From the IMG/VR virus record IMGVR_UViG_3300045988_174610, positions 1-45,002 of that record: a DNA stretch of 45,002 bases. One strand, written 5' to 3'. The position numbers and the translations under genes are program-made. Shown piece after piece: positions 1-45,002 of this stretch (position 1 is the first letter of the stretch; each line of letters opens with the position of its first letter). This DNA is from a virus. The notes under the pieces were generated by a model. The model was not told the origin of the DNA. It worked only from the letters and a program-made list of their open reading frames with translations, and made no database searches.

Positions 1-55
1 AGCTGAACGTCAGCAGCCAGAGCGGAACCGGCGAAAGCGCCGAGAACTGCAACTG
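1..55. repeat. Terminal overlap copy 1 (identical to 44948..45002)
   Basis: Direct comparison: agctgaacgtcagcagccagagcggaaccggcgaaagcgccgagaactgcaactg occurs at both window ends. It lies inside one continuous porin reading frame. Confidence 0.95.
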
Positions 56-13905: not shown

Positions 13906-14757
13906 ATGGCAAGCGGCTTCGATCATTTCGCGTTCTTGCGCGCCATTCGCGACGACAAAAGGCTTGGCGTAGTCGAAAAGGCGGTTGCCGGCATTTCGTT
14001 GCTTGGACGCCGCAACCAGGATACTGCTCAGTGTGACCCGAGTCTGGCGACCATTTGCGCTGATGCCGGTGTGAAGGATGAACGCACGGTCGTGAAGGCA
14101 ATCGAGGCGCTTGTTCAATTCGGTCATGTCCAGGTCGTCAAAGCCCGAGGTCAACGGAACAAGTACGTTCTTATTAATCAAGAAGTGCCTGCATCTGATG
14201 TACCCGCATCAAAAGTACCTACATCCAATGTACCTACATTTGATGCACCTACATCCAATGCCACTAGAGTACCTACATCAGATGTGGGTACACCACCTAC
14301 ATCAGATGTAGGTCGAAGAAACCAAATAAGAAACCAAATAAGAAACAATAAGCGCGCGACCAAGGTCGCTCTGAATTTTTACGGCGTTTCAGAACAGATT
14401 GTTGAGGACTGGAAAGCCAACCGAAAAGCCAAGAGAGCAGTCATCAGCCAGTCGGTGATCGATGGCCTGAAGAAGAAAGCGGATGAAGCTCGCAGGCTTG
14501 GACACCCCGAGTGGGACCTTGAAGCCATTATGCGCGAACAGGTTGCAAGGGCTTGGCAAGGGTTCGAACTCTCTTGGGTGCTCAAGAAGGACGAGAAGCC
14601 GAAGCTGCCTCCGCTTGAACTCACTCCGGAAGCCAAGGCCAGAAGAAGAGCCGAGACGTTGCGTGCTCAAAGGCAGGACGAGGAAGACGATCAGCCAGGT
14701 GTTTTTGAAGACCTCGTTGGTCAAGTCTGGGAGGAGGTGAGACGTGCTCCCGGATAA
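13906..14757 (+). CDS. Replication initiator (lambda O-like role) with winged-helix N-terminus and internal iteron-encoded repeat
   Basis: GAGGA-ATG at 13906. N-terminal HTH-like region, a central VP(A/T)S(D/N) peptide repeat encoded by DNA iterons, and a basic C-terminus. Followed by the helicase gene. Confidence 0.6.
   Translation: MASGFDHFAFLRAIRDDKRLGVVEKAVAGISLLGRRNQDTAQCDPSLATICADAGVKDERTVVKAIEALVQFGHVQVVKARGQRNKYVLINQEVPASDVPASKVPTSNVPTFDAPTSNATRVPTSDVGTPPTSDVGRRNQIRNQIRNNKRATKVALNFYGVSEQIVEDWKANRKAKRAVISQSVIDGLKKKADEARRLGHPEWDLEAIMREQVARAWQGFELSWVLKKDEKPKLPPLELTPEAKARRRAETLRAQRQDEEDDQPGVFEDLVGQVWEEVRRAPG
14185..14350. repeat. Putative origin of replication: about 7 iterons of 15 bp (GTACCTACATC[CA][AG]AT) plus an A-rich AGAAACCAAATA repeat
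   Basis: 15-bp periodic units from 14185. Perfect palindrome CCTACATCAGATGTAGG at 14296-14312. AGAAACCAAATA x2 plus a partial copy at 14317-14350. Confidence 0.65.
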
Positions 14758-30437: not shown

Positions 30438-33400
30438 ATGAAAGAGAACCTGAACCCCGCCTTTGAGGCCATCGACGAACTCGCGGCAGAGCAGAAACAG
30501 CGCCAGGAGCAAACTGGCGCACAGATGCAGGCGTACACAAAGCAACTCGAATCAGTTCAGCAAGAGGCAGAAACCAACAGCAATCCTGCCTTTGCGGTGA
30601 TTGATGAAATGCAGGCCGAGCGGCGTCGCTCCGCGGGTGCGCTTGTTAGCGGTGATGCTATGAAGGCGGCCAAAGTGCGAGATCTTTCCGAACGCTACGG
30701 AACTACGCGCACGGCCGCAGAGATCAACTACGACACGCTCTTTGCCCAGGCAAACCGTGACGATGCGGACGAAGCTCTGACGCAGGCACCTTCACTGGCC
30801 AAATATTTCGCCGAAAACCAAAAAGATGCGCCGATCTTCAAGGATGATCTTGGGGTGCTTTCGCGCATTGAGGAAGGGTTCCGCAAGATCGGTTCTCGCT
30901 ACTCTTCAAATTCGAATGAACCTGTTGATGCCCAACCCAATGCGAAGTACTGGGACACGGAAGAAACTACGGGAGACGCTGCGCTTGACGAACGCATTCG
31001 CCCGATGGTGAATTCCTCGCAGATCGGGCGCGGCGCACAGGCAGGATGGCTCATCGGACAGCAAGGCTTGATGTGGGCTGAGGCCGGCAACAACAAGGCT
31101 CGGCTTAATGACGAATTCAAGAAGCGTGATAAAGAGATCGACAAGGATCTCGAACAGCTTGCGGGTGACGACTCGGATGCGGCTTTCTACAACGCCGCGC
31201 AGATTGTCGGCACGATGCTTTCGACTATGCTCGGCGGTTCAGAAGGTGCGGTTGCCGGCGGTGCATTGGCCACGGGTGCTATGGCTGTCGGTGCGGCTCC
31301 TGCCTCAGTGCCCATTCTTTTGGGCGGCATGGCGCTTGGCATGGGCACTGAAGGAACGCGAAAAGTCGAAGGCGGCCTTTCTTTGAAGACCCTCATTGAT
31401 CAAGGCGTGCCGTATGAAAAAGCCGTACAGATTGCAGGATCCGTGGGCGCAGTCAATGCCTTGATCGAAATGGGCGGCGTGAGTGTGCTCGGCAAGGCCT
31501 TCAGCCCAATTGCCAAATCATTGAATTCTCTTTTTACCAGCAAGTCCGTAAAAGCCCTTGAGAGTCCGACGTTGCGCGGTGCGTTCATGGACGTCGCCCG
31601 CTTGTACACAATGGGCGTCGGGCAGGAAGTCATCACCGAGGCCGCGCAGGAAGTGACCTCAATGGTAGGCGAAGAGGTCGGCCGCCTTTGGGGTGAAACG
31701 GGCGCCAAAGGCATTTCGATGGACGAGGCCATTGACCGCATTCTTGATGTCGGAGAGATGACACTGAAGGGCTCTGCCGTGCTTGGTGCGCTGAGTACGG
31801 GTCCGGTCATGGTCAACCATGCTGCCAAGATAAACCGCGCGAATCAGACGAAGGAATTTTTTGAAAACCTCACACAGGATGTGGCGCAGATGAAAGGTGC
31901 AAACCTTTCTCCGGGTGCCACCAAGGAAGTAATTGATGGCGTGGCACAGGATGCCGGCGCGGGAACGATTTATGTCGACGGTTATGCGTTCCGACAGGTA
32001 ATGGTTGAAGCCGGCGTACGGCCTGAAGATCTTGAGCAGGTGGTCCCCGGCTTGTCTCAGCAGGTGGATGCGGCAGCTGTAAACGGCACCGATGTGACGA
32101 TGAGCACAGGCGACTTTGCGGCACGTCTCGCGGCTTCTCCATTTGGGCAAAAGCTCGTGCCCCACATGCGCCTTAACGAAAACGACCTTTCTCAAGTTGA
32201 AGCTGATAACCTCGAAAAGTCCGTTAAGCAAATGCGCCGCGCAGCCGTTCGGTACGCGATCAACCCCGACGAGCAGATTGTTGATCCCGACGAGCTCAAA
32301 GTTGAAAACGATGCAACGCTCACACCCGAACAAAAGAAAGAGCAGCGAAAGGCCATACGTACCGGTCGCGAACAGAGACGCCAAGCGGACAAAGACGCAC
32401 GCGACGCGTACGTCACTGGTATTACAAACAGTCTGACGCAAGCCGGATTCTCGTCGCGAGAGGCTCGCACACAGGCTCGATTTGCCGGCGCTGTGATGAG
32501 CAACCTTGCCAAACGTCTGGAAATACCTGTGCAAGAAGCGGTCGATCGCTATGGGGTGAATGTTTCTGTGAGTGACGACAGTCCCTCGGGAAACAGATTC
32601 AACATGCCCATCACTCAGGGGATTGAGTGGCCTATGGGGCCGTCCAAGACAATCAAGCCTGATGACACTTTGACGGTTATTCGTGTCACAAATGCCCCTG
32701 TGAGTCGGAAAGAAGCTGTTGCGCAAGCCGCAGATGTTTTTAGCCGTGGTGTTACCAATAAGAGTACCGGATTTGTTTTGACTGCTTCTCGCAGTGACAT
32801 GAAAAAGGCCGCAGGTGGTATCGGCTCGTTAAAAGAACGGGTGTTCACAGCTGTGGCTATGGATATTGCCAGAATCGCAGAAGAATCGATTTTGGTTGAA
32901 AGCCACGTAGATGTACAGCACCGAAACCCCAAGGTTCAGGGTGTTCATCACTTCATTGCCCCTGTTGAATTTGGCGGCAAACTTTGGAGGGTGCAGCTCT
33001 TAGTGCGGGATATTGTCGAGCCGAAAAATGACCGAGCGATTGTTCACTCGGTTGATGGTATCGATATCCAGGAAATGGAAACCCCGCCCGGTGGTATTAG
33101 CCAATCGGAGAGCGGGGCTTCTTACGTCAATGGGGTCGCGGCCGCAGACAACCGACTAGTCCGCCTTGACACCGATAGTGGGCCCACTGACCGTACTCTT
33201 AGTTTAACAGACTTGATTGGAGGTCGCGTTCCTTACGAGCGCGCAGATGGTCGAGGTTTGTTTGATGCGGTAGAAGAATCTTCTTTCGCCGAAAACGGTG
33301 TCTATTACGAGGCTCCTGTATTCAATCAGACAGCTTGGCACGGGTCGCCGCATCAGTTCGATCGATTCTCAACCGAACACATCGGCTCTGGCGAAGGTGC

Positions 33401-36400
33401 TCAGATGCACGGCTGGGGGCTGTATTTTGCAGATGACCAGGCAGTTGCAGATCGGTATCGCGGGAGCCTTGTGATCGGACGAGGAGGAAACGAATACTCG
33501 ATTGCATACAAGGGGGCTCGACCGGAGGAACTTCCTCAATCTTTGCGCGTCGGGTTAGAAAGGCTGAAGGGCAATGTTCTGCACATCGATAGCGATATCC
33601 GGAGAGAGTATGAATCGCTTGTTTATTCGTTGAATGAACGATTCGAGGCTGCCGATCGGATTGCGAAAGTTTACGAAGGACTGATCGCTCAGATTGACGA
33701 AAATCCCAAACAGTCAATTTCGTCGTTTTTGGCACGCGTTCCGGAAGATGAAAAATACCGAGCCGATCTTGCGGTGAAAAGTGCCCGTGCTGCTGCTAAG
33801 AACGAAGGTAGAAGAGCTTCTGTCCATGATGTTCGTACACAGCTAAACGACTCGCTTGCAGCAGTAGATCAGCAAAGGCGTGAGAACAAAGAGCCACTGG
33901 ACGCTTTAAGACAAATTGATCCGGATGACTTGACGGTTGAATACGACTCCGGACGTGTTTTCAAAGTTGACATTCCTGACCCCGACAAAATGCTTGACGA
34001 ACAAAAGCTCTGGGGAGCCGGCAGCAATTTTGAGTTGAAGGCAAAAATTCGCGGGATGATTAGCGAATGGAATGGTGACCATTTGGACACGGAACAAATG
34101 ATCTATGTTCCAGATAGGCCGACAGGACGCGATGTTTATCAGGCTATCTCAAAAGCAATGGGCGGTCCTAAACAGGCGTCTTTGTGGCTGAAAGACCGAG
34201 GGATCGAGGGCATTACCTATGTGGGCGGAACTGACGGACGATGCTACGTTGTCTTTGACGACCAGGCTATTGAAGTCCTCGACTTCTATCAGCGTCAAGG
34301 CGGCGAATCTTTGGGATCCTACTCCCCGACCGAAAACCGCATCACGCTGACGCCGAATGCCGACCTTTCGACCTTCTCTCACGAGATGGGCCATTGGTAC
34401 CTGAACACGTTATTTGCCGTTGCTCGCGCCGGTGATGCCACACCTTCCATCCTTGAAGACGTCAACGCCGTCATGAAGGAGTTCGGCCTTTCGGGGATTG
34501 CCGAGTGGGATGCCTTGGGCTTTGAAGGCCAGCGCAAGTACCACGAGCGCTTTGCATCTTGGACGGAGCAGTATCTCGCCGAAGCCAAGGCTCCTGTCGG
34601 CTTAAAGAAGTTCTTCCGCACTCTGGGCAAGTTCATCCGCGACGCCTACCGCACTTTTATGGCCGGCGTTGTTGAAGGTACGCAGACTCGCTACCGTCAG
34701 GAAACAGGCGAAGAGCTCCCGATGTTCTCCGAAGAAGTCCGACGCGTGCTTGACCGCATGGTTGCGGGCGAAGCAGCCGTTGAGCAGAACGAACAGGCCC
34801 AGAGCCTGACGCCGCTTTTCGAAACAAAGCCTGATGGCATGAGCGACGAAGAATGGCGGGAATACGCAGCAGAGCACGACGATGCGGTTCAGTCCGGCGC
34901 AGAACTGCTTGCAAAAGCACAGGCAAAAGACGAGCGCTGGTACTCGAACGCACGAAGCAAGATCCTCAAGGAGATGCAGGCTCGTGCCGAAGAGATTCGC
35001 AAGAATACGCGCGAACGCGTGGAAGCCAGACTCATGAAAAGCCGCGAATTCACGGCTCTCAACATTCTGCAATCTTCAGATCGTCCTGGTATTGCGTTTG
35101 ATGCCCGCATCGATCCGAAATCGCTCGATGGCTTGCTTGAAGCCGGGCAGATCGAAATTCTACGAAAGGCAGGTATGCTCAAAGACGGCGGGGTTGATGT
35201 GAAGGTCTCCCGCGAACTGCTTCGTCCGTTTGCCAACTTCCGCTCCGATCGGACGTTCCTTAATGGCCTTCTGCGTGTTGCCGATAAGGAAAGAGTCATT
35301 GAAGAGCAGACAACGGCTGAATGTTTGAAGAAGTACGGCGAGCTCTTTGATCCCGTCAAGCGCGACAAGACCGTATCGAAGGCGCTTCACAACGAAGCCC
35401 GAGGCCGCATGGTTGCCACCGAGCTCAAGTACCTGATCAACGACAAGGAGGCGCGTTCGCGCGTTTACCTGGCCGCGGCACGGCAGGCGGCAATGGCTCT
35501 CGTGGACCGCACGAGAATCGGCAAAGCGAAGGTCGCGACTTTCCTTTCTGCGGAAGGGCGTGCTGCACGCCGTGCTCTGGAGGCGTTCCGCAAGGGAGAT
35601 CTTGAGGCCGCCGCCAACTTCAAGCGGCAGCAGATTGTTAACCATGAAGCCGCGCGCCTTGTGTCCGAGGCTGAAGATAAGCGCGAACGCCTCAAGGAGC
35701 TGCGCAACCTTGTATTCAAGTCCGACAAGAAGCTTGCCGCTAGATACGACACGAATATCATGGCCGTTGCTCGCGCGGTGCTCACGAATCGCAACATGGG
35801 CAAGGCGACAGAGAACGTAGACGATGCCGTCGAGGAAATCCTGAAGAAGGTCAAGCAGTACGATCCGGAAATCTTCGAGGGCCTGAAGTCGTTCATGGAT
35901 CGGCATCCTTACAGCCCTGGGCGCGATCCGTCGATGCTGACTGTCGCGGGATTCATCGGCGTGGTTGATGACGTACAGGCGCTTGTCAAACTGGCTCGAG
36001 ACGCGCGCCAAATCACTCTTGACGGAAAGAAGCAGGACCTCGACCAAGCTATCGAAGCACTCAAGAAAGCGATCTTGTCCGCGGACAACACTCGCTTTCG
36101 CCCCGGACAGGAACGTGCTTCCACCAAAAAGGAAGAGAACCGCAAGCTCTACTTTACGGCTCGGGCTTTTGTCATGCGCGTGGAAAACTGGTGCCGGGCC
36201 ATGGACAACGGGCAGGACTTGGGGCCGTTTACGCGCTACATATTCCGCCCCGTTGCCGACGCCGCAGCCAAATACCGCGTCAAGAACGCTGAAATCCAGG
36301 AACGATTTGCAGCTCTCATCAAGCCCATGGAAGAGAAATGGGAAGAGGTTGGAGAGATTGAGGCGCCGGAGCTTGGCTACACGTTCGAGCGCAAGTCCGA

Positions 36401-38261
36401 ACTCATCGGCGCATTGATGCACATCGGCAACGAGTCGAACAAGTCGAAGATGCTCATTGGTGGACGCGGTGAAGATGCTTCGTGGGCGGATCGTGTCGTA
36501 CTGGCAAACGGCGAAGTGATCTACTCCTATGCGCGTTGGGACCGCTTCTTTGCTCGGGCCATGCGCGAAGGCATCATCACAAAAGACGACATGGACTTTG
36601 TACAAGCCGTTTGGGATCTGCTCGAAGAAACCAAGGGCATGTCTCAGAAGGCTTTCAAGGAGTACTACGGCTTCTACTTCGACGAAGTGCAGGCTTCGCC
36701 CGTTGTAACTCCATGGGGCATCTACCGTGGCGGCTACGTTCCCGCAGCCACTGATCCGATGCTTGTAGCCGGGCGCGACAAGCAGATCGAACAGGATCTT
36801 TTTGAGTCGCAGAGCGAATACCAAGACATGATGCCTGTGACGCAGCCCGGTTGGTCGAAGGCACGTGAGAAGAAGTACTACAAGCCGTTAGTACTCAACG
36901 TCGGCATGCTTGGTGCACACATCCAGAGCGTCGTGAAGTTCGCGATGATGGCGCCGGCGGTGAAGAACGTACAGCGCATCGTCAAAGATCGCCGCTTTGC
37001 GGACCTGATGAACGACATCGATCCCAAGGTCATCAGTGACATGCTTACGCCTTGGCTGCGTCGCTCTGCCACGCAGACAATATCAACTCCCACGAATGCC
37101 TTCGGGCGAATTCTCAATCAGGTTCGCGGCCTTGCCGGCATGAGCCTGATGGCGGGCAACGTGGCAAACGTGCTGCAGCAGTACACAGGATTCAGCATCG
37201 CCATGTCGGAAGTAGGCGCCAGAAACACTGCTCAAGGCCTGAAGGAATACTTGCGCGATACGAAGTCTGCATATGCCCGAGTGACGGAAGCATCGACCTT
37301 CATGAAGGGCCGACTCGAAGACTTCTGTTTTGAGTACCAAAACGAAGTCAACCGAATTGCCTCCTCTCGCGCTCCGACAAAGGTTGAAGAAGTGCGCGAC
37401 TGGACGCAGCGGAAGGCTTACATTCTGCAGACTCTTGCGCAGCGGACCATCGACATCCCCGTGTGGCTTGCGGCCTACAACCAGGCAATTACGGAAAAAG
37501 GCATGGCTGACGCGGATGCGGTGTTCTACGCCGACAGCGTAGTGCGACGCACGCAGTCCTCTTTTGCCCCTGAGTCCGTGTCCAGGGTGGAAACAGGCGA
37601 CCCGCTTCAGCGCAGCATTCTTGTGTTCTACAACTACTTCAACATGCAGCTGAACCTGCTTCGCGAGAGTTACACGAGAGCTAAGACAACAGGGAAATAC
37701 GGTCGCTTTACTTTGGACTTCGCGATGATTGTGGCCATTCCCGCAATCCTTTCCGAAGTGATTGCACAGGCATTCAGCGGGTTTGATACGGGCGACGACG
37801 ATGATTGGGACGCAGTCGACGGGCTTCAGCTTGCGATCACATCGGTCAACAAAAACATGGTGGCCATGCTTCCGTTCTTTGGAAACGTCATCAATATGAC
37901 AGGCACGAAGATGTCTAGAGGCGACTATGGCGCCGTGAGCGACGTCTCAAAGATGCTCTTCGGCAACGATCCGTACAACGACAAACTTGTAAGTGTGCCG
38001 GTCATGTCGTTGTTCGAGAACTCAGCCGAGGGCGCTAAGAACCTACTTCTTCTGCTCTTTAGCGAAGAGTACGATCCGGATCCCCGACGCGCAGCACGCA
38101 ACACGCTTGACCTATTGACCTTGATGACAGGTATTCCGTTCAGCGGCGTAAAGAAGCCTGTTGGATATTTGGCCGGTGTTGCGGGTGACGAATACAGCGT
38201 TGACAACCCGGTTGATTTCACGCGCGGATTTATCAGCGGCAAAGATCCGAACGCTGAGTAG
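30438..38261 (+). CDS. Giant (2607 aa) internal virion / polyvalent ejection protein with HExxH metallopeptidase motif
   Basis: Single uninterrupted 7.8-kb ORF. Glycine-zipper hydrophobic segments near aa 250-330 and near the C-terminus. WHGSPHQFDRF..IGSGEGAQMHGWGLYFA motif at about nt 33336-33440. FSHEMGHWY (HEMGH at nt 34380-34394). Confidence 0.8.
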   Translation: MKENLNPAFEAIDELAAEQKQRQEQTGAQMQAYTKQLESVQQEAETNSNPAFAVIDEMQAERRRSAGALVSGDAMKAAKVRDLSERYGTTRTAAEINYDTLFAQANRDDADEALTQAPSLAKYFAENQKDAPIFKDDLGVLSRIEEGFRKIGSRYSSNSNEPVDAQPNAKYWDTEETTGDAALDERIRPMVNSSQIGRGAQAGWLIGQQGLMWAEAGNNKARLNDEFKKRDKEIDKDLEQLAGDDSDAAFYNAAQIVGTMLSTMLGGSEGAVAGGALATGAMAVGAAPASVPILLGGMALGMGTEGTRKVEGGLSLKTLIDQGVPYEKAVQIAGSVGAVNALIEMGGVSVLGKAFSPIAKSLNSLFTSKSVKALESPTLRGAFMDVARLYTMGVGQEVITEAAQEVTSMVGEEVGRLWGETGAKGISMDEAIDRILDVGEMTLKGSAVLGALSTGPVMVNHAAKINRANQTKEFFENLTQDVAQMKGANLSPGATKEVIDGVAQDAGAGTIYVDGYAFRQVMVEAGVRPEDLEQVVPGLSQQVDAAAVNGTDVTMSTGDFAARLAASPFGQKLVPHMRLNENDLSQVEADNLEKSVKQMRRAAVRYAINPDEQIVDPDELKVENDATLTPEQKKEQRKAIRTGREQRRQADKDARDAYVTGITNSLTQAGFSSREARTQARFAGAVMSNLAKRLEIPVQEAVDRYGVNVSVSDDSPSGNRFNMPITQGIEWPMGPSKTIKPDDTLTVIRVTNAPVSRKEAVAQAADVFSRGVTNKSTGFVLTASRSDMKKAAGGIGSLKERVFTAVAMDIARIAEESILVESHVDVQHRNPKVQGVHHFIAPVEFGGKLWRVQLLVRDIVEPKNDRAIVHSVDGIDIQEMETPPGGISQSESGASYVNGVAAADNRLVRLDTDSGPTDRTLSLTDLIGGRVPYERADGRGLFDAVEESSFAENGVYYEAPVFNQTAWHGSPHQFDRFSTEHIGSGEGAQMHGWGLYFADDQAVADRYRGSLVIGRGGNEYSIAYKGARPEELPQSLRVGLERLKGNVLHIDSDIRREYESLVYSLNERFEAADRIAKVYEGLIAQIDENPKQSISSFLARVPEDEKYRADLAVKSARAAAKNEGRRASVHDVRTQLNDSLAAVDQQRRENKEPLDALRQIDPDDLTVEYDSGRVFKVDIPDPDKMLDEQKLWGAGSNFELKAKIRGMISEWNGDHLDTEQMIYVPDRPTGRDVYQAISKAMGGPKQASLWLKDRGIEGITYVGGTDGRCYVVFDDQAIEVLDFYQRQGGESLGSYSPTENRITLTPNADLSTFSHEMGHWYLNTLFAVARAGDATPSILEDVNAVMKEFGLSGIAEWDALGFEGQRKYHERFASWTEQYLAEAKAPVGLKKFFRTLGKFIRDAYRTFMAGVVEGTQTRYRQETGEELPMFSEEVRRVLDRMVAGEAAVEQNEQAQSLTPLFETKPDGMSDEEWREYAAEHDDAVQSGAELLAKAQAKDERWYSNARSKILKEMQARAEEIRKNTRERVEARLMKSREFTALNILQSSDRPGIAFDARIDPKSLDGLLEAGQIEILRKAGMLKDGGVDVKVSRELLRPFANFRSDRTFLNGLLRVADKERVIEEQTTAECLKKYGELFDPVKRDKTVSKALHNEARGRMVATELKYLINDKEARSRVYLAAARQAAMALVDRTRIGKAKVATFLSAEGRAARRALEAFRKGDLEAAANFKRQQIVNHEAARLVSEAEDKRERLKELRNLVFKSDKKLAARYDTNIMAVARAVLTNRNMGKATENVDDAVEEILKKVKQYDPEIFEGLKSFMDRHPYSPGRDPSMLTVAGFIGVVDDVQALVKLARDARQITLDGKKQDLDQAIEALKKAILSADNTRFRPGQERASTKKEENRKLYFTARAFVMRVENWCRAMDNGQDLGPFTRYIFRPVADAAAKYRVKNAEIQERFAALIKPMEEKWEEVGEIEAPELGYTFERKSELIGALMHIGNESNKSKMLIGGRGEDASWADRVVLANGEVIYSYARWDRFFARAMREGIITKDDMDFVQAVWDLLEETKGMSQKAFKEYYGFYFDEVQASPVVTPWGIYRGGYVPAATDPMLVAGRDKQIEQDLFESQSEYQDMMPVTQPGWSKAREKKYYKPLVLNVGMLGAHIQSVVKFAMMAPAVKNVQRIVKDRRFADLMNDIDPKVISDMLTPWLRRSATQTISTPTNAFGRILNQVRGLAGMSLMAGNVANVLQQYTGFSIAMSEVGARNTAQGLKEYLRDTKSAYARVTEASTFMKGRLEDFCFEYQNEVNRIASSRAPTKVEEVRDWTQRKAYILQTLAQRTIDIPVWLAAYNQAITEKGMADADAVFYADSVVRRTQSSFAPESVSRVETGDPLQRSILVFYNYFNMQLNLLRESYTRAKTTGKYGRFTLDFAMIVAIPAILSEVIAQAFSGFDTGDDDDWDAVDGLQLAITSVNKNMVAMLPFFGNVINMTGTKMSRGDYGAVSDVSKMLFGNDPYNDKLVSVPVMSLFENSAEGAKNLLLLLFSEEYDPDPRRAARNTLDLLTLMTGIPFSGVKKPVGYLAGVAGDEYSVDNPVDFTRGFISGKDPNAE

Positions 38262-38318
38262 CGTCCATAAACTCTTGAGTGCCGATGCGAGACTTCCAAC
38301 AAATGATTGGGGTCTCGC

Positions 38319-40634
38319 ATGGCACTTGCTTCTGAAACCAGACGGTCTCCTCGATACGTTGGAACCGGCACCGAAAAAACTTTCACGTTCGCCTTCAAGC
38401 TTCTCAAGCCTGAAGACGTTGACGTGCGCGTAGCTTTGAGCGGAGAGGATGAGGCGTCGCTTGCGACAAGCGAATACTCCGTCACGCTCAACGCAAACCA
38501 GGACAACAATCCGGGCGGCACGGTAACCCTTGTCTCTCCTCTGGCGCAGGGCGCGGTGCTGGTCATCGTGTCCGCGACGCCTTACTTGCAACCGTCCGTT
38601 TACACAAACCGCGGTGGCTTCTATCCGGAGCAGCTCAACACAAACTTGGATCGCCTCACGATCCTCACGCAACAGCTCAAGGAACAATCCGAACGCGCTC
38701 TGATCGTTCCGGTTACGTCCGAAAAGACGCCGGAAGAGACGATGACGGAAATTCTGGACGTGGCAGACAAGGCCAACGAGTACGCCCAGAAAGCCGAAGA
38801 GACTTATCAGGAAGTGCTCGAGACGCAAGAAGAAATTCTCGAGACTCAAAATCAAGTCGATGCAGCTCTGGCGGAAGTTGAGTCGGATCGTCAAGAAGTC
38901 GCGGAGAACACGCAAAGCGTTTCCGAGATGCTCCAGCGAGCAGAAGAAATCGATGCGGGCGTTCAGGAAGTTCTCCCGGTTGTCGATGATATTGCTTCCA
39001 TTGGCGATCACATGGAGAGCGTCATCACTGTTGCTGATGATCTCCAGGGGTATCCGATTGCCTCCATGGACTTCGGCTCCATTACTGATCCGTCTGAACC
39101 TACTACGGTTGTTGACGGAGGCAATATCAAGGCTGTTGCTGACAACATTGCGGACGTTTCGAACGTTGCCGAAAACGTCGATGATGTTGTCCAGGCGGTG
39201 GGGAAAGCTGAGGAGGCCATTGCTTCTGCAAGTGCAGCTGCTGCGTCAGCTTCTGCTGCGGATGCTTCAGCGAAGGCAGCCGCCGCGTCCGCAGCTACAG
39301 CGCAAGCCGGAAGCGAAGCTGTCGAAGAGGGGTTGCAGGATGCACTGACGGCGATCGATACCGCGGCGCAATCGCAGGTGTCGAACCTTCAGTCTAAGGG
39401 GGCTGAACAGATTTCGGCGATCGGGAACGCTGGGGCGACACAGGTAGCAGCAATTGAGTCCGCGGGTCAGACTTACGCCGACCTTGCTGAGGCCTGGGCT
39501 CAGAAGATGGATGGTAAGGTCGAGGAGGATGCGTCAGACGCAGATGCTGGGTACTCGTCACGGTACTACGCAGGCCTTGCGCAAGACGCTGCAGATAGCG
39601 CCGCCTCGAATGCGACGCTCGTCTCTCAGAGCGTATCTACCGCCGTAACCAAAGCACAAGAGGCAGAAGCCTCGGCAACCTCAGCAGCAGGAAGCGCGGG
39701 GCAGGCGGCCTCGTCGGCGAGCGATGCCGATGCTTCGGCACAGACGGCCACTACGAAGGCGAGCGAAGCCTCCGCATCCGCAACCGCCGCAAAGGGTTCA
39801 GAAACTGCGGCTGCAGGTAGTGCCACGTCGGCGTCGAATTCGGCCGGTGCCGCGGCAACGTCGGAAACCAACGCGAAGGCGTCGGAGGCTGCGGCAGCAC
39901 AGAGTGCCTCTGCAGCATCCACTTCAGAGACCAATGCGAGAACTTCGGAAACGAACTCAAAAGCTTCCGAAACGAATGCCAAAGGCTCGGAAACCGCTGC
40001 GGCTAGTAGTGCTTCGTCTGCTGGAAGTTCTGCAACAGCAGCTCAACGTGCTCAGACAGCGTCGGAAACAGCGAAAGGCCAGGCAGAAACTGCCCGTGAT
40101 GCGGCGATTGCCGCACAAACTGCGGCTGAAAATGCGAAGGCGGCGGCTGAAGCGGCACGCGACGAGGCACAAGAAATTTCCGGCTCCATCGGCGATCCTC
40201 TAGGAAAGGCAGAGGCGGAGACGCTTTACGCGAAGATTGCTCACGTACATGCGTTAAGCGTTGGCGGAGATGCAACAGGTTCTGCTTCCCTTGGCAAAGA
40301 GACCGCAACAATGACGTTGACCCTAACGAATAGCGGCGCGACGGCAGGGGCGTACGGACCAGAGGCTGACAGTCCTATTGCTTTCGGAGGAACGATCCTT
40401 GTCCCTAGCGTAACGGTCGATGCGAAAGGTCGCGTCACGTCGATTGTTTCTCGGACGCTCACGATGCCAGCGGAGATCACTTGGGCAATCATCCAGGGGA
40501 AACCGTCGGCGTTCACTCCAGCAGAGCACTCGCACACAATGGATCAAGTCACGGGCTTGGGGACACTTGCCTCAAAGAATGCTGTCGGAGCGGCGGACCT
40601 GGCTGACACACTGGATTTTGGAGGATTGGCGTAA
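38319..40634 (+). CDS. Tail fibre (long Ala/Ser/Thr/Glu-rich shaft, HxH-containing C-terminal repeats)
   Basis: N-terminal beta domain, coiled shaft with SETN(A/S)K heptad-like repeats, and C-terminal AHVH / PAEHSHTMDQVTGL fibre-repeat motifs. Confidence 0.75.
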   Translation: MALASETRRSPRYVGTGTEKTFTFAFKLLKPEDVDVRVALSGEDEASLATSEYSVTLNANQDNNPGGTVTLVSPLAQGAVLVIVSATPYLQPSVYTNRGGFYPEQLNTNLDRLTILTQQLKEQSERALIVPVTSEKTPEETMTEILDVADKANEYAQKAEETYQEVLETQEEILETQNQVDAALAEVESDRQEVAENTQSVSEMLQRAEEIDAGVQEVLPVVDDIASIGDHMESVITVADDLQGYPIASMDFGSITDPSEPTTVVDGGNIKAVADNIADVSNVAENVDDVVQAVGKAEEAIASASAAAASASAADASAKAAAASAATAQAGSEAVEEGLQDALTAIDTAAQSQVSNLQSKGAEQISAIGNAGATQVAAIESAGQTYADLAEAWAQKMDGKVEEDASDADAGYSSRYYAGLAQDAADSAASNATLVSQSVSTAVTKAQEAEASATSAAGSAGQAASSASDADASAQTATTKASEASASATAAKGSETAAAGSATSASNSAGAAATSETNAKASEAAAAQSASAASTSETNARTSETNSKASETNAKGSETAAASSASSAGSSATAAQRAQTASETAKGQAETARDAAIAAQTAAENAKAAAEAARDEAQEISGSIGDPLGKAEAETLYAKIAHVHALSVGGDATGSASLGKETATMTLTLTNSGATAGAYGPEADSPIAFGGTILVPSVTVDAKGRVTSIVSRTLTMPAEITWAIIQGKPSAFTPAEHSHTMDQVTGLGTLASKNAVGAADLADTLDFGGLA

Positions 40635-41044
40635 TGGCGAAAACAGTGCAGTGGCGAGGAGGAACCGCCGCAGAGCACGGAAATTTCACGGGTGCAGCTC
40701 GTGAGGTGACGGTGGAGACCGATACCGGAGCTCTGCGCGTACATGACGGTTCGACAGTCGGAGGGACTCGTATCGCAACCGAGGCAGAGCTTAAGCAGTG
40801 GGTCACGAGACAGCTTGATATCCAGACTCACGAGATAGCAGATATCACCGGATTGCAGGCGGCGCTCGACGCCACTGTGAAGACGACGGGCGACCAAACG
40901 ATCGAAGGCACCAAAACCTTCTCGGCCAAGATCGTGGCTTCTGCCGGCGTTCAAGGGAAAGCCGATTCGGCAGCTACCTCCGACGACGCTCAGTCCATGC
41001 TGGCCGCATTCCAAGAATTCGCACAGGAGAACGGAATTGTCTGA
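40634..41044 (+). CDS. Short tail-fibre stem with Mtd-like N-terminal domain; no receptor-binding domain
   Basis: MAKTVQWRGGTAAEHGNFTGAAREVTVETDTGALRVHDGSTVGG closely resembles my recollection of the Bordetella phage BPP-1 Mtd N-terminus (MSTAVQFRGGTTAQHATFTGAAREITVDTD...VHDGATAGG). It is followed by HEIADITGLQAALD...GDQTIEGTKTF fibre repeats and then stops at 136 aa. Confidence 0.7.
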   Translation: MAKTVQWRGGTAAEHGNFTGAAREVTVETDTGALRVHDGSTVGGTRIATEAELKQWVTRQLDIQTHEIADITGLQAALDATVKTTGDQTIEGTKTFSAKIVASAGVQGKADSAATSDDAQSMLAAFQEFAQENGIV

Positions 41045-41426
41045 CGATCTGAAAACTCTAGTCGCCCAGGAAGTCGCCAAACAGCTGGCGGCCATCGCGG
41101 CCGACCAAACAACGAAGAAGGTTCTCGAGTTTTTGAAGAACCGGAACTCGGCGCTTGCATACGTTGTCGATAAAGGCGAGTCCGGAGGAATCAGTTGGCG
41201 AATTTGGAGTGATGGATTGATCGAACAGTGGATGTCAGATCATTCCAAAAACAAAGCTTATACATTTCCAAAGCCATTCTCGTCAGATAGTTATTGTGTG
41301 ATAGGGATTGGTTTTCTGGTAGATGAAGTTGCGCAACAGTTTATCTATAAGAGCGCTACGGGATTCCAAACTGATTCCGCCGGGCATGCAACAGCAACAG
41401 ATTCGTGGTACGCAATCGGATATTGA
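41037..41426 (+). CDS. Tip cassette C1 (gp53-like C-terminal tail-fibre tip fold), no homopolymer (locked ON)
   Basis: TTG start 7 nt after AGGAGA, overlapping the stem-gene stop. Contains KKVLEFLKN helix, GESGG (GGA GGA at 41184-41189), ISWRIWSDGLIEQW core, and ends SWYAIGY. Confidence 0.65.
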   Translation: MSDDLKTLVAQEVAKQLAAIAADQTTKKVLEFLKNRNSALAYVVDKGESGGISWRIWSDGLIEQWMSDHSKNKAYTFPKPFSSDSYCVIGIGFLVDEVAQQFIYKSATGFQTDSAGHATATDSWYAIGY

Positions 41427-41435
41427 GGATTAGGT

Positions 41436-41796
41436 ATGGCAACAGCAGATCAAATCGTGAAGAAAGTCCTCACAGAGTTAAACAAAAAGATTGATTCAGT
41501 GGGGGGGGGTAGTCGATAGTTGGACGGACGGTCAAGGTAACTTTTGGCGGAAGTATTCTGACGGTTTCATTGTGCAAGGCGGAACAGAACCCTATACAGC
41601 GAAGTCAGGAGTCGTGACGTTTCACATTCCGTTTTCAACTGCTAATTGCGTAGTTGTAGCGCCGACAGCCGAAGTCACTTCAACTGATAGTGATGGTGTT
41701 GATATGGCAACTATGGTTTCTGACTTTACAGCTAGCTCTTTTAGATACTCCCGCAGTAGTGGAAGAACAGTCCCTTGGGTGGCGTATGGATACTAG
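41436..41796 (+). CDS. Tip cassette C2, phase-OFF in this assembly (G9; G8 gives a 119-aa protein)
   Basis: ATG at 41436 after GAGGA. MATADQIVKKVLTELNKKIDSVGG, then the G tract, then in the -1-shifted frame VVDSWTDGQGNFWRKYSDGFIVQGG...VPWVAYGY. The current frame stops at TAG 41517-41519. Confidence 0.7.
41501..41509 (+). repeat. G9 homopolymer in C2
   Basis: Counted directly: cagt GGGGGGGGG tagtcgatag. Confidence 0.95.
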
Positions 41797-41809
41797 AAAG
41801 GAAATCGAA

Positions 41810-42192
41810 ATGACAGAAGTAATTCCCCAGGTGGGGGGGTATCTGAAAACCCCACGACTAAAGCGGTTTTGTCTTGGTTCAAGACACAAATCGGAAAAGC
41901 CGACCAGGTTGTCGAGGAGTGGCACGAGGGTTCGGAATGGTACATAAAGCACTCGAATGGATTCATCGAACAGGGTGGGATTTATTCAACCTCAGATTCA
42001 GGCATAACAACAATATCTTTTATCGCCCCATTTTCAGAGGTTGAGACCGTGAGAGTGTTCGCCCACAGCGATAAGGCGCGTGATTCTGGGGATGAGTGGC
42101 ACAGCCACTTCCTACCGTACAACATTACTACAAATACTTTCACTCTTAGATCGGCAAATCCAGAACGGCGATGGTATGCCTGCGGCTATTAA
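41810..42192 (+). CDS. Tip cassette C3, phase-OFF in this assembly (G7; G8 gives a 127-aa protein)
   Basis: ATG at 41810 after AAGGA. MTEVIPQVGG, tract, then VSENPTTKAVLSWFKTQIGKADQVVEEWHEGSEWYIKHSNGFIEQGG...RRWYACGY in the other frame. The current frame runs to a stop at 41947. Confidence 0.7.
41833..41839 (+). repeat. G7 homopolymer in C3
   Basis: Counted directly: cag gt GGGGGGG tatctg. Confidence 0.95.
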
Positions 42193-42204
42193 ATGAGGTT
42201 AAAA

Positions 42205-42579
42205 ATGGCAGAAACAGACTTTTATATCGGACAAATCTTTGAGGAAACCTATCCTCCCGAGGCTGCGGTGTGGTGCAACAGCCACGGCGACCGCTACATC
42301 ACAGAGCTTGAAAAGGAAGGAGCCAAGCGCCGCTTCCAGATCGTGGCGGTGCCGGAGCCGACAACCGAGGAGATCGCCGCACAGGTGCGAGCAAAGCGCG
42401 ATGCCTTGCTGGCGGAGACGGACTTCCTGATGATGCCGGACTACCCGCTCGGCGAAGAAGACGCGACCGCCTTGAAGACCTATCGCCAGGGGCTGCGCGA
42501 CGTACCGACCCAGGAGGGCTTCCCGACCGAAATCACGTGGCCTGATTTTCCCGCAACGCTTTCCAAGAAGGTGGCTTAA
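42205..42579 (+). CDS. Tail-fibre assembly chaperone (Tfa-like)
   Basis: C-terminal pattern RAKRDALLAETDFLMMPDYPL......LKTYRQGLRDVPTQEGFPTEITWPDFP is the classic tail-fibre-assembly/DUF4376-type motif. Same TGAGGTTAAAAATGGCAGAA start context as C5. Confidence 0.7.
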   Translation: MAETDFYIGQIFEETYPPEAAVWCNSHGDRYITELEKEGAKRRFQIVAVPEPTTEEIAAQVRAKRDALLAETDFLMMPDYPLGEEDATALKTYRQGLRDVPTQEGFPTEITWPDFPATLSKKVA

Positions 42580-42948
42580 ATGGCAACAGCTGATTCGACC
42601 ATAAAAGCGGTCTTAAACCACCTCCTTCAGAATGGGGGGGGTAATCATAAAGTTATTGAAGAATGGCACAGTGAATCAGGAGGCCAGTGGTGGAGGAAGT
42701 GGTCTGATGGATATTTAGAGCAAGGCGGATTGTGGAATGAAGCTGGCCCTGCTGAAGGATATACAAACAGGACTATCACTCTTCCAGTCAGTTTTGGAAC
42801 AGTGAATTATGTCGTGGTTGTTCAGTCAGGTTTTCGAGAAAACTCTGGATTGGGAACTTACGTCTCGGAAAAAGATACTTCTTTTTTTAAAGCAAAAAGT
42901 GCATCTAATCCACCGAATGCTGCTACATGGTACGCTTGCGGATATTGA
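42580..42948 (+). CDS. Tip cassette C4, phase-ON (G8)
   Basis: MATADSTIKAVLNHLLQNGGGNHKVIEEWHSESGGQWWRKWSDGYLEQGG...ATWYACGY. Intact 122-aa ORF through the tract. Confidence 0.75.
   Translation: MATADSTIKAVLNHLLQNGGGNHKVIEEWHSESGGQWWRKWSDGYLEQGGLWNEAGPAEGYTNRTITLPVSFGTVNYVVVVQSGFRENSGLGTYVSEKDTSFFKAKSASNPPNAATWYACGY
42634..42641 (+). repeat. G8 homopolymer in C4
   Basis: Counted directly: cagaat GGGGGGGG taatcat. Confidence 0.95.
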
Positions 42949-42957
42949 GGTTTAAAA

Positions 42958-43325
42958 ATGGCAGAAGCGAATCAAACGATTAAGAAAGTTTTGAACCACC
43001 TGAATTCCAAGATCGGAACGGGGGGGTAGTCGATAGTTGGAGCGATGGGCAGGGGAACTTTTGGCGGAAGTACGCCGATGGGTGGATTGAACAGGGTGGC
43101 ATTATTGTGGATCAAAGCGAATCGAAAATCGAAACATTAACTTTCCACACCAGTTTTTCAAACACGAGCTATTCTCTTTTCCTAAGCAAACAAATTTCGT
43201 CGACTGACACATCGTTTTCTGCTAGGGCAATTGGTGATATGTATTCCGATAAGCAGGTGTCCAGTGTAAAGATTTTTCATTGGGGCTTGGCAACTAATTT
43301 GACTTGGTTTGCCTGCGGATATTAA
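42958..43325 (+). CDS. Tip cassette C5, phase-OFF in this assembly (G7; G8 gives a 122-aa protein)
   Basis: ATG at 42958 after GAGG. MAEANQTIKKVLNHLNSKIGTGG then an immediate TAG. The other frame continues VVDSWSDGQGNFWRKYADGWIEQGG...TWFACGY. Confidence 0.7.
43020..43026 (+). repeat. G7 homopolymer in C5
   Basis: Counted directly: ggaac GGGGGGG tagtcgatag. Confidence 0.95.
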
Positions 43326-43336
43326 AGGAAATAGAC

Positions 43337-43720
43337 ATGGATAAAGTTTCACGAGTGGGGGGGGTAGCCTCTCCTGATGTTTTGAAGGTTTTGGAGTGGT
43401 TCAAAAATCAGATCAAATCCAACAAAGGAATTGTCGAAGAGTATCACGACGATTTAGGTTTTTACGTTAAATTCGCAGGCGGCCTGATTGTGCAAGGCGG
43501 AGCGCTTACAGTGGTATCTACCCAGACCATCACTTTTCGCACTCCTTTTTCGGGTATCGCATACTCGTTAGCCTTACTTCCAATCCTTATTAAAACTGGT
43601 GAGTCTTGGGGAGAAGCACCGCGAGAAATGAGTGGAACAAGAACTACCTCAAGCGTCAGCATCTGGATGAACGGCACTGCACAAGATCGAACAGGTTCTT
43701 GGATTGCCATCGGCTACTGA
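43337..43720 (+). CDS. Tip cassette C6, phase-ON (G8)
   Basis: ATG at 43337 after AAGGA. MDKVSRVGGVASPDVLKVLEWFKNQIKSNKGIVEEYHDDLGFYVKFAGGLIVQGG...GSWIAIGY, intact through the tract. Confidence 0.75.
   Translation: MDKVSRVGGVASPDVLKVLEWFKNQIKSNKGIVEEYHDDLGFYVKFAGGLIVQGGALTVVSTQTITFRTPFSGIAYSLALLPILIKTGESWGEAPREMSGTRTTSSVSIWMNGTAQDRTGSWIAIGY
43357..43364 (+). repeat. G8 homopolymer in C6
   Basis: Counted directly: cgagt GGGGGGGG tagcc. Confidence 0.95.
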
Positions 43721-43726
43721 CTCTTC

Positions 43727-43746
43727 GCCCTCTTCGGAGGGCTTTT
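43727..43746 (+). terminator. Rho-independent terminator of the late/tail-fibre operon
   Basis: GCCCTC-TTCG-GAGGGC followed by TTTT, 7 nt after the C6 stop. Confidence 0.75.
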
Positions 43747-43756
43747 CAGAAAAGTA

Positions 43757-43788
43757 AAACCCGCCTCAGTCAAAACCGAAGCGGGTTT
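43757..43788 (-). terminator. Hairpin downstream of the porin gene (probable terminator)
   Basis: AAACCCGC-(16 nt)-GCGGGTTT; on the reverse strand it is followed by TACTTTTC. Confidence 0.45.
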
Positions 43789-43821: not shown

Positions 43822-45002
43822 TTAGAACTTGTGACGGATACCGATCATAGCACCGAAGACGGTGGGGTCTTCGTCTTCTACACCAGAGGTGTTGTGGTCA
43901 AAGCTATCCTGGTTATACGTAACAACACCATAGATGTTGGTGCGCTTGGAGAGCGGATAATCGTAACCGGCAGACACGATCCAACGGTTCAAATCGACAC
44001 CCCCGAGCCAACCACCCATGCGGTCATCCATGCTGTCGGCGGATTCGGCGTCCATGTAAGAAGCGCCGAGCAGAACGTTACCACCTGCCGCGGGAATGGC
44101 AGCGGAAATGCCAAGGCTCCAGCCTTTCACATAAACGTACTTAGAGCCGTCCTCGACGTTCAACATGTTTTCGGCAGCCAGATCAACCAGATCCGTTGCT
44201 GCGCCAGAGAAGCTAGACAGGCGAACTTCGTCAAAATAGGCGGCGCCAGCAAAGAGCTTCACGACCTCAAAGTCGTAGTTACCGCCGAAACGAACTGTCA
44301 GGCTGTCGTCGATGTCGTCGGCGGCACCCTCAGCAGCCGTAAGGCCGGCAGTCTTATAGTTGATTGAGTCGACGGCGAAGTAGAGGTTAAGAGGACCATT
44401 AGCGTAGGTTGCGCCGATGGCGTAGTAACGATCGCTGCCAGATTCGTTTTCATAGTCGTTGGAACCCATGCCGTACTGGGCGAACACTGTGAAGCCGGCG
44501 AAGTTCGGGGTTTCGTAGGCAATCATGTTGTCCCATTTGCCGGAACCACCAAAGACCGTATCGGCTTGAGCAGCGTAGCCACCCCAAGACGTACCAAAGG
44601 CGGACATCATACCCTGCTTACCCCAGGAAGACACGCCACCATTAATGGAACCGATGCGGCCCATGGCCAACTTACCAAAACCGCCCTGGATAAAGAGGCT
44701 CGATTCACGATCAAACATCTGGTCTTTTTCAGCGCCAGTGTCAGAGGCAAAGCCGTCTTCAAGGATGAAGCCCACCGTCAAACCGTTGCCGAGGTCTTCA
44801 GTACCCTTCAAGCCCCAACGAGAGCCGGACTGCATGCCGGATTCCATAGAGAAGGTGTCTGTCGCGTCATAGCCGTTCGGGGCTTCTGCGCTGGTTGCAT
44901 CCAAATCGCTGTGTAGATAACGGAGGCCCGTATCAACGATACCGTACAGCTGAACGTCAGCAGCCAGAGCGGAACCGGCGAAAGCGCCGAGAACTGCAAC
45001 TG
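43822..45002 (-). CDS. Phage-borne general porin (Gram-negative trimeric porin; OmpC/PorB-like), body of the gene; 5' end at nt 56-74 across the junction
   Basis: Mature N-terminus ADVQLYGIVDTGLRY, alternating beta-strand pattern, GSRWGLKG, and C-terminal ...GAMIGIRHKF with terminal Phe. The frame is open from 44904 to the window end and joins the signal peptide at nt 1-74. Confidence 0.85.
   Translation of the reverse strand, partial: VAVLGAFAGSALAADVQLYGIVDTGLRYLHSDLDATSAEAPNGYDATDTFSMESGMQSGSRWGLKGTEDLGNGLTVGFILEDGFASDTGAEKDQMFDRESSLFIQGGFGKLAMGRIGSINGGVSSWGKQGMMSAFGTSWGGYAAQADTVFGGSGKWDNMIAYETPNFAGFTVFAQYGMGSNDYENESGSDRYYAIGATYANGPLNLYFAVDSINYKTAGLTAAEGAADDIDDSLTVRFGGNYDFEVVKLFAGAAYFDEVRLSSFSGAATDLVDLAAENMLNVEDGSKYVYVKGWSLGISAAIPAAGGNVLLGASYMDAESADSMDDRMGGWLGGVDLNRWIVSAGYDYPLSKRTNIYGVVTYNQDSFDHNTSGVEDEDPTVFGAMIGIRHKF
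44948..45002. repeat. Terminal overlap copy 2 (identical to 1..55)
   Basis: Same 55-nt string as nt 1-55. It ends exactly at the window edge. Confidence 0.95.

Follow-up and report, generated by a model that had tools for sequence, protein, structure and literature searches.

We analysed a 45,002-nucleotide (nt) stretch of viral DNA, the IMG/VR record IMGVR_UViG_3300045988_174610 (the window, to whose whole length all positions refer unless a contig is named), in which six paralogous genes stand in tandem behind the tail-fibre genes of a phage (Table 1). We call the paralogs C1 to C6 in array order. Their products are putative receptor-binding tips of the tail fibre and would as such be incorporated into the virion. 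A run of G is found early in each of C2 to C6, and none in C1.

Table 1. Features of the fibre-tip locus, with positions in the window
Feature	Position	Strand	Remarks
Tail fibre/tail protein gene	38307..40634	+	775 amino acids (aa) in the list of open reading frames, 771 aa as called; PHROGs tail protein and tail fibre families; directly 5' of the fibre-tip locus
136-aa fibre protein	40634..41044	+	Pfam Mtd_N 9.5e-16, BppL_N 2.3e-6; last ~25 residues ..TSDDAQSMLAAFQEFAQENGIV
C1 tip gene, tract-free, 129 aa	41037..41426	+	Pfam PF21882 5.4e-7, 30.5 bits; two predicted N-terminal helices and Gp53-like_C foot domain
C1 codons N37-Y42, AAC TCG GCG CTT GCA TAC	41145..41162	+	Homologue of the C2/C4/C5 tract columns by codon alignment, family alignment and BLASTP; no glycine
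C1 codons G47-G51, GGC GAG TCC GGA GGA	41175..41189	+	Counterpart of C4 GGA GGC (SESGG); in the model, G50-G51 make the hairpin turn between beta1 and beta2 of the foot domain
C2 tip gene	41436..41796	+	G9 tract 41501-41509; 27-aa product in the sequenced, out-of-frame state; frame restored by G8 or G11
C3 tip gene	41810..42192	+	G7 tract 41833-41839 at codons 8-10, ahead of the helix; out-of-frame state; frame restored by G8 or G5
Tail-fibre assembly chaperone gene, between C3 and C4	42193..42579	+	Pfam Phage_tail_APC 7.7e-24; PHROGs tail fibre assembly 2.5e-27
C4 tip gene	42580..42948	+	G8 tract 42634-42641, in frame; own SESGG (GGA GGC) 12 codons 3' of the tract
C5 tip gene	42958..43325	+	G7 tract 43020-43026 with TAG adjoining it; 23-aa product in this out-of-frame state; frame restored by G8
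C6 tip gene	43337..43720	+	G8 tract 43357-43364, codons 8-10; in frame
GC-rich terminator-like hairpin closing the fibre/tip operon	43757..43788	no strand	Contig L001 7178-7209 (window coordinate = L001 + 36579)

All six tip proteins match the Pfam family Gp53-like_C (PF21882), C2 with an E-value of 8.3e-9 for its G8 version. The scores of C1, C2, C5 and C6 (30.5, 36.3, 26.7 and 32.2 bits) are all above the gathering score of 24.9, and those of C3 and C4 (24.0 and 24.4 bits; E ~5e-5) fall just under this cut-off, the two being clear paralogs of the others. A profile of the family matched the solved structures of AP22 gp53 (4MTM, 1.4e-6) and of pyocin fibres (6CT8, 5.5e-5; 6CL6, 8e-5), and also the R2/R1 pyocin fibre C-termini 6CXB and 6CL5. 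Again, R2/R1 pyocin fibres (6CT8, 6CXB, 6CL6 and 6CL5) were the top Foldseek matches of a C4 model, with E-values of 4e-5 to 3e-4 and a template modelling (TM) score of about 0.55. The pyocin foot is a trimeric, lectin-like beta-sandwich that follows a short helix and has been proposed to be a subtype-specific, sugar-binding adhesin; truncated pyocin fibre constructs were soluble only when co-expressed with the fibre chaperone (PMC6363177). Judged by profile matches and predicted fold, all six are probably stand-alone proteins made of a helix and a lectin-like foot domain, as in the R-pyocin and AP22 gp53 fibres. The likeness to these feet (6CT8, 6CXB, 6CL5, 6CL6 and 4MTM) covers the domain itself, by profile and predicted fold, the short helix before the beta-sandwich and the presence of a fibre chaperone gene nearby. 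In R-pyocins and AP22 gp53, however, the domain is the end of a long fibre, whereas here it is a separate protein of 115-130 aa with its own start codon. An exhaustive profile search returned 9,445 relatives of the domain, mostly C-termini of long fibres, among which the stand-alone form (103-147 aa, profile match from residue 1) makes up a distinct subgroup.

The window holds only six G/C runs of at least six nucleotides, namely a G10 at 232-241 and the five in C2 to C6. The heptamer GGGGGGG has 13 overlapping matches compared with 2.8 +/- 2.0 in dinucleotide-preserving shuffles, and 0 of 100 shuffles reached 13. In the tip genes the tracts are G7 to G9 and fall within codons 8-24; C3 and C6 have theirs at codons 8-10, and in C2, C4 and C5 it occupies the linker between helix and domain. 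When frames were computed for each tract length, all five tract genes were in frame at G8 (also at G5 or G11), and G7 or G9 gave products of 23-45 aa in silico. As sequenced, C1, C4 (G8) and C6 (G8) are on, and C2 (G9), C3 (G7) and C5 (G7) are off. Every cassette has its own Shine-Dalgarno sequence and start codon, which is ATG in C2 to C6. The tract and the toggling by +/-1 G that mark a Fletchervirus-type contingency locus were found in silico for five genes, with C1 lacking the tract. In C4-type cassettes, an AAT before the tract creates ATG-G(n) (window 42632-42641; contig L009 8028-8038; proteins P0043, P0096 and P0097); a tract of G9 sets this internal start codon in the frame of the domain, and the predicted product, MGGGNHKV..., lacks the helix and is of a kind that gene callers annotate.

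The Gly-Gly pair of C1 and the tract glycines

An initial annotation of the locus had held that C1 encodes the same Gly-Gly hinge as the tract genes with non-slippery GGA GGA codons, as a synonymous and locked-on version of the tract. Its reading of the letters was accurate: GGC GAG TCC GGA GGA is found at 41175-41189, in frame in C1, and encodes G47 E48 S49 G50 G51. The statement that the homopolymer is present in five paralogs and missing from one also held, as C1 nowhere has as many as five G in a row. C1 starts with TTG after AGGAGA and shares 8 nt, stop codon included, with the gene upstream. The proposed order of helix, hinge and core applied to C2, C4 and C5, but not to C3 and C6, where the tract at codons 8-10 comes before the helix. 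A frameshift fusion between the fibre gene and C1, whose frame is open for 52 codons upstream, was also considered and set aside as unsupported. The 8-nt overlap recurs with its Shine-Dalgarno sequence on unrelated fibres, in agreement with translational coupling.

The equivalence of the two hinges, on the other hand, did not survive alignment. We compared three MAFFT modes, a codon-level alignment, a 79-sequence family alignment and BLASTP of C1 against C4 (E 2e-13), and every one of them opposes GESGG of C1 to SESGG of C4, TDGQG of C2 and SDGQG of C5 instead of to the tract glycines. The codon-level alignment of the hinges placed GGA GGA at a non-homologous position, which is the outcome that the annotation itself had named as contradicting its claim. 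In C4 the codons opposite GESGG are AGT GAA TCA GGA GGC, and the pair GGA GGA faces GGA GGC in C4, CAA GGT in C2 and CAG GGG in C5. This position lies 8-12 codons 3' of the tracts in C2, C4 and C5, and C4 carries both elements, the G8 tract and, 12 codons further, the counterpart of the C1 pair. The anchor of the alignment is a V-V-D/E motif (GTT GTC GAT in C1, GTA GTC GAT in C2 and C5), which adjoins the tract directly in C2 and C5 and has codons N37-Y42 directly 5' of it in C1. The tract columns of C1 thus read Asn-Ser-Ala-Leu-Ala-Tyr, and the claim that the amino acids are conserved beneath a synonymous homopolymer cannot be read from C1, because C1 has no glycine at the homologous position. 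The C1-type relative P0006 likewise reads NSAEAY in the columns of the tract, and DG-A in those of the turn.

The two glycine pairs belong to different structural elements in AlphaFold models that were based on the family alignment. The C4 model (predicted local distance difference test, pLDDT, 84) has a helix at residues 6-17, a coil containing the tract-encoded G19-G21 and a strand at 25-30, with E32-G35 forming the turn that joins strands 25-30 and 36-41. The C1 model (mean pLDDT 83; numbering +1) has helices at 3-19 and 24-37, a short linker, a strand at 43-49, a turn at G50-G51 and a strand at 52-57. Along the linear sequence both Gly-Gly pairs do come after the helix and before the W-R-x-W core, as a shared hinge would. 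With six analyses placing the C1 pair elsewhere, a paralog that possesses the tract as well as ESGG, a modelled beta-hairpin turn for the one dipeptide and a helix-domain linker for the other, and the residues of P0006, we nevertheless consider a shared hinge very improbable. Alignments and models together indicate that GGA GGA of C1 is unconnected with the switch and encodes the first beta-hairpin turn of the foot domain. A Gly-Gly in a similar linear neighbourhood is not the same as a homologous Gly-Gly, and the valid internal controls for codon choice at the tracts are the QGG motif and the genome-wide Gly-Gly pairs.

These controls bear on a further claim of the annotation, that the tracts are kept for their mutability and not for coding. 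Its argument by way of C1 falls with the hinge; the part stating that the tracts are not there for coding is supported by codon usage and by the tract residues. In nine long genes of the phage GGG accounts for 14% of the glycine codons, and GGG GGG for 0 of 41 Gly-Gly pairs; GGA GGA, with 4 of the 41, is unremarkable. The QGG motif, invariant in the five tract paralogs, is encoded by GGC GGA, GGT GGG or GGT GGC. The tract columns hold different residues from paralog to paralog (NSALAY in C1, KADQ in C3, SNKG in C6), the tract occurs at two protein positions, and database members with point-interrupted tracts have VEGV, VRGV, NEGG or VVWGGV. From codons and residues alike, we conclude that the tracts are not there for coding.

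Tract lengths and selection in related loci

Related loci were gathered by exact-protein look-ups, a scan of IMG/VR and one metagenome pattern scan, 8 of whose 13 loci were chance matches in G-rich contigs, and cassettes were located with a hidden Markov model of the family. The 16 loci contain 58 tracts, all of uninterrupted G (one G6, seven G7, twelve G8, 36 G9 and two G10). Scored for frame, 43 tracts were off, 10 were on and 5 were left unscored; five of the in-frame cassettes had been chosen by querying with their own in-frame product. The in-frame length is 8 nearly everywhere. Exceptions are a hybrid cassette, whose C4-type leader is joined to a C5-type body and which needs G7 or G10, and a cassette in contig L042, in frame at G7 because ACA replaces ACG before the run. 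The tract is followed by TA in 54 of 58 cases and by a stop triplet (TAG, TAA or TGA) in 41, so that one off frame ends at once.

The first cassette is always C1-type, with a MSDDLKTLVAQEV... leader, and overlaps the fibre gene. It is free of a tract in 12 of 12 arrays captured with it intact; in the 13th, the relative L028, the C1-type gene is cut by a stop at codon 88. The description of C1 as the locked-on member is thus borne out as far as the missing tract goes, a property shared with the first cassette of these 12 arrays, and its expression is presumably constitutive. The annotation further predicts that at least tip C1 would be present on every virion; the relative L028, as said, has a truncated C1-type gene.

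The C4-type tract differs between lineages, being G8 here, G9 in L009, L023, L033 and L047, and G7 in L028. Among sites with flanks at least 95% identical, one of seven pairs differs in tract length: L009 has G9 and L047 has G10, with 300 of 300 flanking bases identical. Exact-protein look-ups with C4, the Mtd_N protein and C1 all led to one small set of contigs, which agree in their tract lengths and so show no variation within the lineage of this phage. Three contigs end exactly at a tract (L031, 887-893; L026, 1-10; L034, 1-8). In a related phage, a 101-aa gene beside an antirepressor gene has a 5' tract of G9 (L025 4576-4584) or G10 (L024 4575-4584), in one sample each; its open reading frame is intact at G9, and the G10 copy adjoins a scaffold gap.

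Some cassettes are hybrids joined exactly at the tract. One consists of a C4-type leader, G8 and a C5-type body and occurs in three assemblies (L024 8195-8549, = L025, L026); another, P0054, joins a C5-type leader to a C6-type body. These hybrids suggest recombination or template switching at the tracts.

The out-of-frame cassettes are not dead. For 28 pairs of orthologues with neither member in frame, the median ratio of nonsynonymous to synonymous substitution (dN/dS) was 0.12, with dS up to ~0.7, which points to purifying selection on the coding sequence behind the tract. The only clearly decayed cassette is found in L042, beside the one that is in frame at G7 (1390-1792 and 1004-1378 for the two, on the reverse-complemented contig). 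Its tract is interrupted, GGGGAGGGG, and a stop codon lies in frame within its helix; such decay is the expected fate of a copy that is unable to switch back. That the runs are errors of homopolymer sequencing or assembly, or that the broken cassettes are pseudogenes, would agree with the error-prone nature of poly-G and with the contigs that break at tracts. We give this explanation next to no weight, since six assemblies gave identical lengths, the tract positions are conserved in 16 loci from many studies, and the bodies are intact with the dN/dS just given.

Contingency switching and the alternatives to it

The anatomy of the array, its frames, the homology of its members, the length polymorphism between relatives and the purifying selection on the bodies are observations. 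On balance they make it fairly probable, in our judgement, that the array is a contingency locus gating alternative receptor-binding tips, with C1 as the default; the switching itself, incorporation into the virion and an effect on host range are what we infer. C1, as the first gene and without a homopolymer, would be made whenever the operon is expressed. In C2 to C6 only G8 (or G5 or G11) would link the start codon to the domain, and at G7 or G9 translation would end within a few codons, mostly at the stop triplet abutting the tract. Slipped-strand mispairing at replication would gain or lose one G, and each tip would therefore switch independently and reversibly. The population would then consist of phages with the default C1 tip and a minority of genomes with extra or alternative tips, and in this way hedge its host range.

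Several of our data speak against contingency switching. Tract length agrees in six of the seven identical-flank comparisons, and six assemblies of this phage, which may share one cohort or person, all have 9/7/8/7/8, so the tracts appear fairly stable at the consensus level. The contig ends at tracts and the G9/G10 difference fit heterogeneity but fit poor sequencing of poly-G as well. Among cassettes that had not been used as queries there are only about three 'on' alleles. Lastly, G9 makes up 62% of the tracts (36 of 58), and a G9 dominance of this kind could mean that G9 itself is the selected state. A precedent for such a mode is found in the polyG/C tracts of Campylobacter jejuni, where nine is the modal length, insertions prevail among mutations of G8 and deletions among those of G11, and the mutational pattern is given as the cause of the mode (PMC3401435). 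If the same holds here, most genomes would carry most of the extra tips in the off state, and a minority would turn one on.

A selected G9 is what would be expected from programmed recoding. By this explanation G9 is the resting length, and tips are made from 'off' alleles through slippage of RNA polymerase on a run that matches the RNA:DNA hybrid in length, or through a +1 frameshift of the ribosome; every tip would be constitutive at a low level and G8 alleles would be up-mutants. The abundance of G9 and its persistence across lineages at dS 0.2-0.7 agree with this, as do the purifying selection on out-of-frame bodies, the consensus lengths reproduced across assemblies and the layout of C5 at G7, where the stop codon abuts the tract as in a classical 'shifty stop'. 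However, orthologous sites show every length from 6 to 10, G7 and G9 need opposite shifts, and the mode of nine is already explained by the mutational pattern known from C. jejuni. The features of a programmed frameshift were not found, in that the length varies from 6 to 10 and no consistent structure lies downstream, upstream elements having had no systematic search; RNA structure 3' of the tracts is not conserved (z-scores -0.2 to -2.0, with differing folds). Transcriptional slippage in bacteria, moreover, is well documented on A/T runs and is much weaker on G/C runs. We therefore consider programmed recoding unlikely as the main explanation, noting that recoding and contingency switching are not mutually exclusive.

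The hybrids raise another alternative, in which the position of C1 is the sole expression site and the downstream cassettes are silent donors that recombine into it through the shared leader and helix, as in Neisseria pilS, the tracts being incidental or mere recombination joints. Besides the leader/body hybrids joined exactly at the tract (L024, L025, L026 and P0054), this would be in keeping with the 76-79% DNA identity of C2 and C5 around the tract, and with a G+C content of the tip genes that is lower than in the backbone. It is difficult to reconcile with the Shine-Dalgarno sequence and ATG present on every cassette, with the existence of intact in-frame alleles and with the rule that cassettes are in frame at G8, for which silent donors have no need. 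In addition, no hybrids with a C1 leader were seen, and the C1-type leader is of a different kind, with two helices and no tract. To us a silent store, including the incidental role it gives to the tracts, seems quite improbable. A repeat search revealed no inverted repeats around the cassettes, no invertible segment and no long repeat pair beyond the similarity of the paralogs. Neither an invertase nor a reverse transcriptase was found among ten open reading frames scanned, not all others being covered, and the recombinases among the ten were a tyrosine integrase and RecT/YqaJ only.

The phage, the fibre junction and related systems

The first 55 nt of the window are repeated exactly at its end (1-55 = 44948-45002). 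Because of this terminal overlap we regard the contig as a circular assembly of ~44,947 bp, and the porin gene that would otherwise be taken for host flank is therefore part of the phage genome. The window corresponds, in rotated form, to the public scaffold MEHT18-1_SAMN06165053_scaffold_189. It encodes a T7-type portal, a GP7-type capsid protein, an integrase, RecT/YqaJ, a holin and an endolysin, and is thus the circular, 44.9-kb genome of a temperate, podovirus-like phage. Porin type, G+C content and study codes point to a gut betaproteobacterium as a putative host. The host-like locus yielded neither a tRNA nor a tmRNA. Among 50,697 deposited phage genomes, blastn with the tip locus and tblastn with a tip protein gave nothing relevant and no cultured relative, and a scan of genome contigs with the Mtd_N protein gave just two weak, irrelevant matches.

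Between the cassettes there is no promoter-like site and no convincing terminator-like site other than the hairpin that closes the operon. The G+C content is 42-47% in the tip cassettes (window 41100-43750) compared with 54-60% in the backbone and the embedded chaperone gene, which suggests a different origin or turnover of the cassettes. Just 5' of the fibre genes, at 30438-38261, lies the gene of a 2,607-aa protein with LPD-type domains (Pfam LPD22/LPD3; phrog_9880), presumably a protein that is internal to the podovirus-like virion or ejected from it. At 14183-14292 a 15-nt unit with a consensus near TGTACCTACATCNAA is repeated in tandem about seven times; the repeats could be iterons or lie within a gene. 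The phage porin gene encodes 399 aa (Porin_4/Porin_1; 43822-45002 plus 1-19, minus strand). The G10 at 232-241 reads as C10 on the porin coding strand, ~160 nt upstream of the porin ATG. A chromosomal porin with 67% identity has C9 at the homologous upstream site (L051 9807-9815), after a common motif, GTGTTGTAATTTTTCnTAGGGTnnA, and with TTGACT following the tract; the porin poly-C is a candidate for a promoter-level variable tract that was captured together with the gene.

The ~25-residue C-terminus of the 136-aa fibre protein (..TSDDAQSMLAAFQEFAQENGIV) is conserved, together with the 8-nt overlap junction, among fibres that measure 136, 398-403 and 724 aa (window 40970-41044; L023 ~6930-7008; L024 ~6930-7008; L033 ~2825-2900), in podovirus-type contexts as well as in myovirus-type baseplate contexts. 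Such conservation suggests that this C-terminus may be the boundary of a mobile module, and it is a candidate docking helix for the helices of the tips. One could tentatively go further and picture the array as a mobile plug-in host-range module, composed of docking helix, default tip, two to six polyG tips and chaperone, that sits on unrelated fibres of phages of one gut host clade. It would allow at most 2^5 tip combinations per genome, use GT-G8-TA as joints for shuffling leaders and bodies, and perhaps make low-level tips from G9 by RNA slippage. We hold this wider picture to be possible and put it forward with reserve.

The closest parallel is found in the Campylobacter Fletchervirus phages, whose genes for receptor-binding proteins contain polyG tracts that are hypermutable (Sorensen et al. 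2021, Cell Rep 35:109214, cited in PMC12823448, PMC10579305 and bioRxiv 10.1101/2025.10.21.683753). As far as these citing accounts describe it, both systems have G tracts of ~7-11 in phage receptor-binding genes, and in Fletchervirus frame-dependent on/off states lead to subpopulations that differ in receptor use. By the same accounts the systems differ in that the phages here are temperate and the proteins unrelated, with two to six tandem stand-alone tips predicted to be gated near codon 8-24, a tract-free default tip in first place, a chaperone inside the array, and tails of both podovirus and myovirus type. Contingency loci have also been proposed for T2/T4 and other phages, in work that found a deficit of homopolymers of at least 6 bp in the tail-fibre genes of coliphages (Gomez, Barrick and Waters 2025, bioRxiv 10.1101/2025.10.21.683753). 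Homopolymers in phage genes are common ground with loci of the T2/T4 type, as would be reversible frameshifts and bet-hedging; in contrast to the coliphage survey, the long runs here are concentrated in fibre-tip genes, the sole other run being the G10 at 232-241. Like the C. jejuni polyG/C loci, the array has a modal length of nine and on/off states set by +/-1 G, but it is part of a phage genome and would gate predicted virion proteins, whereas the C. jejuni loci gate bacterial surface structures (PMC3401435).

The Gin/Cin inversion systems of Mu and P1 and the retroelement acting on Mtd of BPP-1 all switch the distal, receptor-binding part of the fibre, as is predicted here, and the constant 136-aa fibre protein bears an Mtd_N domain reminiscent of BPP-1 Mtd. 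The difference is that the array would switch by frame and not by inversion or mutagenic retrohoming, with states that could combine freely (2^5). Phages of the T2/T6 type have in gp38 a small separate fibre-tip protein that determines the receptor and is encoded by a single gene. Its fold is unrelated to that of the tips, and gp38 comes without paralog arrays or homopolymer gating.

A search of the literature found no description of this polyG-gated array of stand-alone tips. The gating of receptor-binding genes by polyG is already known from Fletchervirus, and new here, to the extent that the accounts citing that work cover it, are the protein family, the stand-alone array, the default tip, the embedded chaperone and the two tail architectures. 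If the tracts switch as we propose, temperate gut phages would have a compact, combinatorial means of varying their tips beside DNA inversion and diversity-generating retroelements, and host ranges that metagenomes show to be broad or to shift would be easier to explain. To annotate the out-of-frame tip genes of assemblies as pseudogenes would then also be a mistake. The format of helix plus foot, together with the conserved fibre C-terminus, suggests a natural plug-and-play interface for engineering the specificity of phages and tailocins.

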